18,705 bases of DNA, from positions 1 through 18,705 of IMG/VR virus record IMGVR_UViG_2778261458_000001; one strand, 5' to 3'. The translations under genes and the position numbers were made by a program. A model generated the notes under the pieces. It had not been told where the DNA came from, searched no databases, and was given only the letters and a program-made list of their open reading frames with translations. Below, piece by piece: positions 8,667 through 10,719 of the stretch; position 1 is the first letter of the stretch; each line of letters starts with the position of its first letter. Source of the DNA: a virus. Lineage: Duplodnaviria; Heunggongvirae; Uroviricota; Caudoviricetes.

Positions 8667-9007
8667 TATGAAATCAGTTTGAGTGGTCATAATGACGCTC
8701 CCTTGTTATTGTTTTGCTTAAGGTCTCAATCATCGGGTTATGAGACGTACAGGGTGAAACTACCGGATCACCGCACGGTGAGCTTTTCGGCTATCACATT
8801 CGCCTGCCATTATTCAGATGTGCACGTACATACGACGATAAAAAAACACTCTCGGCGTGTGTTTGCCGTGGTGAATATCAGGGTGCTATATCCCGACGCC
8901 ATATTTTGCTGAAGTACGTTGGACTGTGGGTTGGTTCATTGACATAGCAGTTATCTGTCTTCAAATCCCTGAACAAACGATGCGAACGAGAATCAATATC
9001 AAATGTA

Positions 9008-9057
9008 TTGACAAGTAAAACAGTAACGATGTACCTTTGCTGATAACATATATCAGC
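9008..9057 (+). promoter_or_regulatory. Candidate promoter/operator upstream of the esterase gene
   Basis: Perfect TTGACA at 9008-9013 and a perfect 7-5-7 palindrome GCTGATA-ACATA-TATCAGC at 9039-9057, about 110 nt upstream of the esterase start. Confidence 0.3.
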
Positions 9058-9164
9058 GATTAAATCATAATGGAGGTAGATAAAAAACCTAGATTCATAC
9101 AACAAATTGTTCATCAGTGACATAGCATATCTTAATAATCCTTTAATGCTCATGGGGAGAACGT

Positions 9165-9938
9165 ATGACTAAACACATGGACATTCATTGTCAAACACGC
9201 ATATTTAACTCAATTAACTATGACACAAAATATAAAATATGCGTTTTTACTCCAAAAAACATTAAAAAAAATAATACAACTCTTTATATACTTGATGGAA
9301 ATAGCGCCAACAATAACATTTCTGATATTCTTCCTGTTATTGATGCACTACCCAATCCACCAGTGTTAGTTACACTGAGTTACGAATCTTTGGATAAGCT
9401 TAATATTCACCGCCGTGCTTACGATTACACTCCTGGTGGTGAAAATGCTATTATTGATAACTCCAAACCAGCATGGATCTACTTCACTGGTGGAGGAAGT
9501 CAGAGTTTCCGAGAGTTATTGCTAACTCAGATCATGCCCTGGGTCAGCACCATTGTTCCGACATCCTCAAAACTCGGTATATGGGGACACTCACTAGGTG
9601 CTATTTTTGTTCTTGATTGTTTAAAAAACAATTCATGTTTTAACTATTATTATATCTCAGCACCATCACTTCTATGGCAGGATGAAAGAATCATCAAGAT
9701 CATAAAAAATGACATGCCAGAATCAAAGCATACTAAAAGTATATGCTTACTTAGCGGAGATCTTAGCCTTGATTACTCCACATCTTTATATCCTGAAGCC
9801 ATTAAAGCAGAATCTGTTTTGAAAAATATTTTAGCAGAAAAATATAGTAATTTTTCTGTCGTACAATTTCCAGAACTCAATCATCAGGAGACTTTCGCTG
9901 CTGCACTCTGGAATAGTATTATTCATTTCAGCATATAA
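9165..9938 (+). CDS. Alpha/beta-hydrolase, esterase family (Fes/IroE/esterase-D-like), AT-rich moron
   Basis: 257 aa; GxSxG nucleophile elbow in IWGHSLGA, upstream YILDGNS and DYTPGG segments typical of the putative-esterase fold; GGAGA SD before ATG 9165. Visibly lower GC than flanks and opposite orientation to neighbours. Confidence 0.8.
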   Translation: MTKHMDIHCQTRIFNSINYDTKYKICVFTPKNIKKNNTTLYILDGNSANNNISDILPVIDALPNPPVLVTLSYESLDKLNIHRRAYDYTPGGENAIIDNSKPAWIYFTGGGSQSFRELLLTQIMPWVSTIVPTSSKLGIWGHSLGAIFVLDCLKNNSCFNYYYISAPSLLWQDERIIKIIKNDMPESKHTKSICLLSGDLSLDYSTSLYPEAIKAESVLKNILAEKYSNFSVVQFPELNHQETFAAALWNSIIHFSI

Positions 9939-10302
9939 CAGCAGAGATATAATCACTTTATCACTCTGGCTAACATAACTGACATCAATCCTAATGGGTC
10001 ATTGAGCATATTAATAAGCACAGTAAAAGATAACCCCTAATTTGTGCATTGCTGTGTTCTTAGACCCATTAAAATATTCCATTTGTTTTTCAGATAATCA
10101 TAACCACATTCACTTAGCCACCTTCTATATTATCCCCCCAATTTCTTAGTTGGAACTGGTTCAACTCTTACACTCGCATACTGGGACCACTTTATCAACA
10201 TACGAATAGCATCCATGCTGCGAATTATTGCTATGCAATTTCCATATATCTACACTTTTCCCATCTGTTACAATACCAGAAGCTAAAGATTTCATATTGT
10301 TT

Positions 10303-10719
10303 TCACTGCTCCATCATTACTCCTGTGCAAAATATCAAAACTCTCTGCATCACTTCACTGTTACGGCACTCATTACAAATTATATTATGACGCCTGTCGT
10401 AGCGACGTATTTCTCCGTCATCTAATGACCAGATAAGGCCCGGATCAACCACAGCGGGTTTCTTCGCCCTTGCCCTAGTGAGTTTTTTGCGGGCATTTTG
10501 CCAGTCCTTACGAGCCTGTTCAGACGGGAATAACCCGTAACCAGAGTTGTATACATCGCCACTGGCAACCAGCTCTCTGGCGAGAACGCTCATCAGATAT
10601 CTTGTCGCACCTGTCTTGGCTTCCAGTTGCCGTAACGTCTCGCGTCCACTCCGGCGTACCAGTTCAACAACCTGCCCTTTAATTTTTTCTCGCTCTTCTT
10701 GTGTAAATACTTTTGCCAT
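10303..10719 (-). CDS. Hypothetical prophage protein
   Basis: ORF 10303-10734 (ORF-track start is TTG); first ATG at 10719 (MAKVFTQEEREKIKG...). Basic central region; C-terminal end runs into the AT-rich island. Confidence 0.45.
   Translation of the reverse strand: MAKVFTQEEREKIKGQVVELVRRSGRETLRQLEAKTGATRYLMSVLARELVASGDVYNSGYGLFPSEQARKDWQNARKKLTRARAKKPAVVDPGLIWSLDDGEIRRYDRRHNIICNECRNSEVMQRVLIFCTGVMMEQ

Follow-up and report, generated by a model that had tools for sequence, protein, structure and literature searches.

A predicted IroE-type siderophore esterase and a candidate Fur operator in a cargo cassette of lambdoid prophages

Trilactone siderophores are opened by a group of esterases that includes IroE, the salmochelin/enterobactin trilactone hydrolase of the iroBCDEN cluster (PDB 2gzr/2gzs), as well as Fes and the bacillibactin esterase of Bacillus, BesA or BES (PDB 2qm0), both of which act to release iron. 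Here, we describe a gene for a homolog of these enzymes in phage DNA, at positions 9165-9938 (plus strand) of an 18,705-nucleotide stretch (IMG/VR record IMGVR_UViG_2778261458_000001, positions 1 to 18,705), which is referred to throughout as the window. The gene lies in an AT-rich cassette of 1.43 kb (8911-10340), and codes for an IroE-type serine esterase of 257 residues with no signal peptide. We propose, with roughly even confidence, that the cassette is a cargo moron encoding a cytoplasmic IroE-type siderophore esterase, which would be repressed by Fur and induced by iron starvation. Siderophore esterases and phage morons are both known already, and it is the combination of features that is unusual.

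The characterised relatives differ in architecture and location. IroE reportedly carries an N-terminal membrane anchor or leader and is periplasmic, and its residues Asp90 and Arg130 are said to be functionally important, whereas BesA is cytoplasmic. On the phage side, the bor and lom genes of lambda are the model of lambdoid morons, independently transcribed cargo genes. The catalytic residues of IroE form a Ser189/His287 dyad, while Fes uses a Ser-His-Glu triad and possesses a further domain at its N-terminus (PMC10515146). PfeE of Pseudomonas aeruginosa and Cee of Campylobacter are periplasmic enzymes that free iron by hydrolysing ferric enterobactin, and are encoded beside an outer-membrane receptor, with pfeE being induced by enterobactin through PfeS/PfeR; Fes acts in the cytoplasm (PMC8001512).

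Family, fold and leader of the esterase

The open reading frame at 9165-9938 begins with ATG, with GGAG 5 nt before it, and an in-frame stop codon is found six codons upstream. An earlier note, made from the letters of this DNA, had placed the product among hydrolases of the Fes/IroE/esterase-D group on the basis of the motifs WGHSLGA, YILDG and DYTPGG, which are indeed all present, and had suggested a search with hidden Markov models as a check. This search matched the Pfam Esterase family (PF00756), although marginally, with 22.8 bits for a cut-off of 22. No match to the 257-residue protein was found in NCBIfam, and in PHROGs it falls in phrog_8493, a group of unknown function. A role in anti-phage defence was considered and discarded, as PADLOC gave no match.

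Sequence comparisons were more informative. Using phmmer against the PDB, the best match is IroE (2gzr, E = 1.3e-25, residues 8-253), and the others are exclusively siderophore esterases, namely BES, PfeE, the fungal EstA/EstB and an IroE-like protein of Shewanella. The alignment of the 257 residues to the catalytic domain of IroE is end to end. With a profile built from 64 relatives, the E-values are 8.8e-88 for PfeE, 4.2e-87 for IroE and 1.4e-67 for BES. An AlphaFold2 model computed on the alignment of the 64 relatives (predicted local distance difference test score of 91.4, predicted template modelling score of 0.92) displays a single-domain alpha/beta-hydrolase fold without the N-terminal lid domain of the Fes type. 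In a Foldseek search of the PDB with this model, all of the 30 best matches are siderophore esterases (IroE, PfeE, EstA/EstB and BES), with E-values from 5e-19, obtained for IroE, to 4e-14, and template modelling (TM) scores of 0.71-0.79, normalised by query length, whereas Fes, esterase D and feruloyl esterases appear only at 1e-9 or weaker. The phmmer, profile and Foldseek results thus support the group assignment of the earlier note and narrow it to one type: the product is, as judged by its sequence and model, an IroE-type siderophore esterase homolog.

The catalytic residues are conserved. The nucleophile elbow is formed by G141-H-S143-L-G145, and S143 and H240 align with the dyad residues Ser189 and His287 of IroE. 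D44 and R84, in the YxLDGN and RAYDYTP motifs, align with Asp90 and Arg130 of IroE, with an offset of +46. Residues D44, R84, D87, G110 and G141 do not vary across the 64-sequence alignment, and H142, S143, G145 and H240 hardly vary. The protein thus resembles IroE in its single lid-less domain, its GHSxG elbow, the Ser/His dyad and the two motifs, and IroE is its best match both in sequence and in structure; it differs in sequence identity (about 26-28%), in having no leader, and in being encoded by a stand-alone prophage gene instead of a siderophore cluster. PfeE and Cee belong to the same family (TM about 0.75 for PfeE), but the prophage esterase lacks their leader and the accompanying receptor gene, and has a candidate Fur-type site instead. 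BES shares the lid-less IroE-type fold, but is only 19% identical, and Fes, with its additional N-terminal domain, matches far less well.

An exhaustive search of 1.84 billion representative sequences gave high identity only to fragments of this same E. coli protein, the next matches being 30-33% identical (E about 1e-26). The best of these distant relatives are proteins of about 300 residues, from Pantoea or unnamed. These results suggest that the protein belongs to an orphan lineage restricted to E. coli prophages, with nothing closer than about 33% outside it.

The relatives of about 300 residues possess a PLGxNIADxGS stretch and a hydrophobic segment at the N-terminus, and their match to the prophage protein starts only at about their residue 50. 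The prophage protein begins directly at the first beta-strand of the model, and the maximum hydropathy over 12 residues within its first 50 is 0.03, compared with 2.0-2.96 in eight relatives. We also considered that the gene might have been truncated at its 5′ end, leaving a leader remnant upstream, but a tblastn search with the N-termini of the relatives gave nothing meaningful. Since there is no N-terminal signal or anchor, the protein is most likely cytoplasmic, a location that it would probably share with Fes and BesA.

The candidate Fur operator and the upstream palindrome

Control by Fur was examined because the product is a siderophore esterase homolog, and because the earlier note had suggested iron as a possible signal. 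Four alleles of the cassette were compared: A, of this window; B, of O157; C, a third one; and D, a fourth and more diverged one, from GCA_046506925.1. The two best matches in the window to the textbook Fur 19-mer (14/19 each) are both inside the cassette, at 8982-9000 and 10093-10111. To score such sites by more than the consensus, we used a position weight matrix derived from 13 known Fur-regulated promoter regions of E. coli K-12 (fepA-fes, fepD-entS, fepB-entC, fhuA, cirA, feoA, ryhB, fiu, tonB, exbB, fecI, fhuE and fhuF), on which true Fur sites, when left out one at a time, have a median of 15.9 bits (range 7.5-22.5, n = 13). The site at 8982-9000 reaches 14.9 bits, which is the best value in the window, and 8988-9006 reaches 14.1 bits, the third-best. 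These two 19-mers overlap in a 6-nt register and form a candidate Fur operator at 8982-9006, to which no strand is assigned.

In alleles B and C the corresponding site reaches 19.3/15.0 bits, and in allele D, in spite of its changed sequence, 20.7 bits. When the 254-nt upstream region is shuffled with its dinucleotides preserved, the observed score is reached with P = 0.015 in this allele and P = 0.0014 in that of O157. As a control, 106 kb of K-12 DNA outside the training regions contains only two sites of at least 14.9 bits, one of which lies between fecR and fecA, a short way upstream of fecA, where a Fur site is known. The evidence for a Fur box, which comes from sequence scoring, is moderate for this allele and good for the allele family, and iron control of the esterase gene through the predicted operator is plausible.

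The second match to the textbook 19-mer, at 10093-10111 (GATAATCATAACCACATTC, 14/19, 14.5 bits), is located in the 3′ spacer and is not among the six top-scoring sites of allele B, whose other sites all score 12.8 bits or less. As it is not conserved in that allele, we take it to be due to chance or to AT-richness. As a separate observation, the strongest match in all the DNA scored was found in the Sakai chromosome (NC_002695, about 1,186,875-1,186,899): GATAATTATTATCATTTTG, with 23.6 bits and an overlapping site of 18.3 bits. It is in the late region of prophage Sp4, between the holin gene ECs_1100 and ECs_1101, about 230 nt upstream of the latter, which encodes a hypothetical protein and is possibly, from this site, another iron-regulated prophage cargo gene.

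The perfect TTGACA that the earlier note had reported upstream of the gene is in fact one of two on the plus strand. The first, at 8939-8944, is a possible −35 element that has only TCAAAT, 16 nt downstream, as −10, and is present in alleles A to C but not in D. The second, at 9008-9013, is invariant in all four alleles and is the likeliest −35; its only −10 candidate, read by eye and not reported by the promoter scan, is TACCTT, at a distance of 18 nt, which is weak and reads TATCTT in allele D. The sole upstream match returned by the promoter scan is ATAACA-17-CATAAT at 9043-9071, which with 9/12 is no better than expected by chance for the region.

The 7-5-7 palindrome GCTGATA-ACATA-TATCAGC is found exactly where the same note had placed it, at 9039-9057 (no strand). 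Its proposal that iron would act through this palindrome holds only in part: regulation by iron is plausible, with 8982-9006 as the better candidate, whereas the palindrome fits Fur poorly, with 11/19 to the consensus and 4.6 bits on the matrix. The palindrome was also rejected as a LexA box, since it reads CTG-N11-CAG and LexA requires N10, and as a copy of the immunity operators, there being no second or related site anywhere in the window.

It could still be argued that a dedicated repressor other than Fur, from the host or from the prophage, acts through the palindrome on a promoter belonging to the gene, and perhaps senses a signal that is not iron. The palindrome core, CTGATAACATATATCAG, is identical in 20/20 copies of the cassette in spite of about 13% divergence across it, and belongs to the best-conserved block of the cassette (8990-9056), which is more conserved than the coding sequence. 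Furthermore, its position between TTGACA and the ribosome-binding site would let a bound repressor block transcription. On the other hand, no second or related site exists in the window, the immunity region included, none of the named operator types fits, and perfect 7-nt inverted repeats are not unusual in this DNA, with eight pairs in the same 1.8 kb. Allele D, unlike every intact allele, has also lost the left arm while retaining the Fur-like box and the TTGACA at 9008-9013, although this is weak evidence that the arm is dispensable because the coding sequence of this allele is frameshifted. We consider control by such a repressor unlikely as an alternative to Fur, with which it would nevertheless be compatible as a second layer.

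Proposed function and its weighing

In the mechanism that we favour, the substrate would be a catecholate trilactone siderophore (enterobactin, salmochelin or bacillibactin type), whose ester backbone would be cleaved by the Ser143-His240 dyad. Hydrolysis would free iron inside the lysogen, a task analogous to that of Fes and BesA, carried out with an IroE-like fold. The gene would be transcribed alone and against the flow of the prophage early genes, and the host Fur would repress it through the 8982-9006 operator, beside the TTGACA −35, so that the esterase would be made during iron starvation from an otherwise silent prophage.

Several points weigh against this proposal. The Pfam score is barely over the threshold, and identity to any characterised esterase is 26-33%, and for these two reasons the substrate could be a different one. 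No siderophore uptake or synthesis genes are adjacent, the neighbours being hokD and DUF977 in 20/20 copies, and the benefit is not obvious since E. coli already has Fes. Regarding regulation, the Fur matrix was seeded with the textbook consensus, the 14.9 bits of this allele are the weakest score of the four, and when the whole 1.43-kb cassette is shuffled the probability of this score rises to 0.08. The Fur-like site stops one base before the TTGACA at 9008-9013 and so does not cover the −35, and no convincing −10 of a canonical sigma-70 promoter (at least 4/6) is found 16-18 nt from either TTGACA. Isolated phage genomes (INPHARED) contain no close copy but only distant IroE matches, and the literature search found no paper that mentions ECs1077, the O157:H7 Sakai copy of the gene, or its protein accessions. 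A search on CP-933M with Fur, or on prophage siderophore esterases, likewise found nothing relevant.

Some of these points could also be explained by an esterase of the IroE fold that acts on a substrate other than a siderophore, such as another depsipeptide, an acylated metabolite, or a toxin or antibiotic ester, in which case the Fur-like site would be a by-product of AT-rich DNA. The low identity, the marginal Pfam score and the missing iron genes agree with this, as do the orphan clade, which has no intermediates among the 1.84 billion representatives, and the fact that other Fur-like matches in the cassette, such as that at 10093-10111, are not conserved. However, the nearest solved structures are siderophore esterases in 30 of 30 cases, five orders of magnitude ahead of other esterases, and the residues D44, R84 and D87, invariant in the family, are retained. 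Moreover, the Fur-like site reaches 19-21 bits in the three other alleles and survives sequence turnover, and in the K-12 control such scores are essentially confined to real iron promoters. These results make a substrate of another kind improbable, and we retain the siderophore esterase under Fur control as the preferred interpretation.

The cassette, its host prophages and what it may mean

The earlier note had described an AT-rich island with a horizontally acquired moron, and the composition, limits and context of the cassette bear this out. The GC content is 0.31-0.39 in 400-nt windows across about 8800-10400, and about 0.46-0.52 on either side. The cassette itself (8911-10340), which comprises the promoter region, the esterase gene, a 3′ spacer and the last 13 or so codons of DUF977, has a GC content of 0.35, compared with about 0.48-0.50 in the flanks. 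The value is uniform over its parts (0.354 in the upstream region 8911-9164, 0.349 in the coding sequence and 0.354 in the 3′ spacer 9939-10302), and lower than in the hok/sok locus (0.50), DUF977 (0.48) and the whole window (0.483). GC content at third codon positions is 0.29 in the esterase gene, against 0.46 in DUF977.

The limits were set by homology. Compared with cassette-less prophages, homology stops at 8656-8678 on the left and at 10340-10345 on the right, whereas homology to the cassette of O157 prophage Sp4 begins at 8911; the left limit was set against Sp4 and two other cassette alleles, and the right limit against four cassette-less prophages. From these breaks and the start of homology to O157 we take 8911-10340 as the common unit. 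On its left there is a filler of 230 nt (8681-8910, no strand; GC 0.47), non-coding, with no conserved open reading frame or annotated feature, which is not homologous to the O157 version and is limited to the close-allele group, with 13 of the 5426 complete E. coli genomes. Two further open reading frames of the region, of 44 codons (10161-10295) and 91 codons (8878-9153), are treated as spurious since neither is intact in the O157 allele or matches a Pfam family. In this allele only, a 9-nt inverted repeat (ATATTTTGC / GCAAAATAT) is found at the cassette edges (8901-8909 / 10327-10335), which is probably due to chance as the left copy falls outside the region shared with the O157 allele.

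The left conserved flank is the hokD toxin gene with the hok/sok RNA locus (8306-8630, minus strand; hokD coding sequence 8306-8461), in which Rfam identifies the sok antitoxin RNA (RF01794) at 8456-8630 with 110.7 bits. The right flank is the DUF977 gene of the replication module (10303-10719, minus strand), so that the placement of the esterase gene between hok and the replication module was correctly described. The suggestion that the neighbour ending at 10303 had been truncated does not hold: RefSeq annotates a full-length DUF977 of 138 residues, which matches PF06163 with 89.6 bits over model positions 1-131 of 134, and the protein has 138-140 residues in cassette-less prophages. Only its last 7-9 or so residues differ (...TGVMMEQ instead of ...QGNFQEVMA). 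As the right homology break is about 40 nt inside the 3′ end of this gene, we consider its tail to have been swapped, with the last 13 or so codons (10303-10344) belonging to the cassette.

The spacer between the two genes (9939-10302) has no conserved open reading frame, but contains a long hairpin at 9992-10071 (plus strand), for which the minimum free energy is −39.5 kcal/mol (9925-10105, z = −3.4). The outer 8-bp stem is retained in the four alleles, across which no compensatory changes or covariation were found. The hairpin is not a canonical terminator, since the T-run at 10083-10091 starts 11 nt past the stem, and no terminator was called there by the terminator scan. It may be a non-canonical transcription stop.

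In related prophages the same hokD-DUF977 slot is occupied by QueH, by DUF4406 and a hypothetical protein, by DUF7167 and hypothetical proteins, or by two hypothetical proteins. The slot is therefore a variable cargo site of Rac/Qin-like lambdoid prophages, extending from hok/sok to DUF977 at the end of the replication module. The esterase gene behaves as cargo, with slot contents that vary among related prophages and a deviant composition. The condition that the earlier note had named as refuting applies in part: one sub-lineage of prophages conserves both the gene and its flanks, yet the composition clearly differs and the slot is variable. Like the lambdoid morons bor and lom, the esterase gene is an addition to the conserved modules between which it lies, occurs in only some of the related prophages, and has a deviant composition, the opposite orientation and what appear to be promoter-like and stop-like signals of its own. 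Unlike them, no canonical terminator was found, and the 3′ end of the adjacent DUF977 gene is part of the cassette.

A lambdoid prophage of the chromosome of E. coli JP538, a pig isolate, contains the window at 100% identity; on the side reached by the retrieved stretch, this prophage adjoins tRNA-Ser and mtfA. According to the RefSeq annotation of the identical record, the minus-strand genes from the left end rightward are those of terminase, lysis genes, two tRNAs, a methyltransferase, DUF1133, RusA, DUF968, rem and hokD. The minus-strand genes continue to the right of the esterase gene with DUF977, DUF1627, replication protein P, a DnaT-like protein, YdaT and a Cro-like regulator, beyond which comes the divergent repressor side. 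As the earlier note had remarked, 9165-9938 is the only exception among the minus-strand genes, from the left end of the window to about 13757.

Other features of this prophage can also be mentioned. The two phage tRNA genes, tRNA-Arg and tRNA-Ile (3591-3664 and 3765-3837, minus strand), are upstream of the lysis genes and beside the DNA methyltransferase. Stx-type lambdoid phages typically show such an arrangement, although the window contains no stx gene. A second AT-rich dip, at about 15000-15600 (GC 0.36-0.39), contains a hypothetical gene of 214 codons (15298-15942, minus strand), which opposes its plus-strand neighbours ydfC and dicB and has no Pfam or PADLOC match. From its sequence context, it looks like another moron.

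The cassette is present in 471 of the 5426 complete E. coli genomes (about 9%). Thirteen of these copies, most from pigs, are at least 99% identical to that of the window, and the other 458 are about 87% identical, a group in which O157:H7 and O145 dominate among the matches listed. The Sakai copy, ECs1077 in prophage Sp4, is a "hypothetical protein", and it and its alleles are annotated just as this or as "alpha/beta hydrolase". The cassette is also found on 18 IMG/VR prophage contigs, and no close copies were found in the representative genomes of 185,579 species. All 20 cassette copies examined are flanked by hokD and DUF977, also when identity in DUF977 drops to 69%.

Alleles A and B, the two main ones, differ at 72 of the 774 coding nucleotides, and their products at 26 of 257 residues, which gives a ratio of nonsynonymous to synonymous substitution rates (dN/dS) of 0.165. 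This indicates purifying selection on the esterase gene.

Decayed copies also exist. That of GCA_046506925.1 (2960-3780 of the retrieved stretch) has at least two frameshifts and no left palindrome arm, but keeps its 20.7-bit Fur-like box, and that of IMG/VR UViG 2695420643_000015 (4001-4770 of the retrieved stretch) has a premature stop after 67 codons. In strain CFSAN018748 (NZ_CP028192.1, 2491981-2495218) the match to 8700-10600 is in two pieces, with an annotated IS2 (an IS3-like element) under the match span.

It could be asked whether the cassette is inert baggage, silenced by H-NS or decaying, and kept only by its linkage to the prophage. E. coli commonly silences foreign DNA that is rich in AT, and the two broken copies and the IS2 in the slot of one genome would agree with this. 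Nevertheless, the dN/dS value, obtained over 72 nucleotide differences, and the full 257-codon frame kept in 19/20 copies both argue for a gene in use, the catalytic residues are intact, and the promoter block is better conserved than the coding sequence. We therefore regard inert baggage as very improbable.

Iron acquisition is central to the fitness of E. coli in the gut and to its virulence, and prophage cargo genes explain much of what distinguishes O157:H7 from harmless strains. A more far-reaching proposal, which is tentative and on the whole rather doubtful, is that phages provide E. coli, notably O157:H7 and O145 Shiga toxin-producing strains, with a cytoplasmic trilactone esterase of a unique lineage, induced by iron starvation, which would be an unrecognised factor in iron acquisition or fitness of enterohaemorrhagic E. 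coli. If this is so, the lysogens may use catecholate siderophores more widely or faster, for example xenosiderophores that are poorly handled by Fes, or may do so through the linearisation of enterobactin. The raised intracellular iron might in turn feed back on Fur-controlled receptors of phages and colicins, among them FepA, CirA, Fiu and FhuA.

Even if the prediction fails, the gene still marks a variable cargo slot in Rac/Qin-like prophages. If it holds, about 9% of complete E. coli genomes, the carriers among those listed being mostly O157:H7 and O145 Shiga toxin-producing strains plus the pig-associated allele group, would have a second siderophore esterase, phage-borne and controlled by Fur. 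Without a leader, the protein would also be unusual in a group of Gram-negative esterases whose characterised members are periplasmic, and its carriage by these prophages would be a case of lysogenic conversion acting on iron metabolism.

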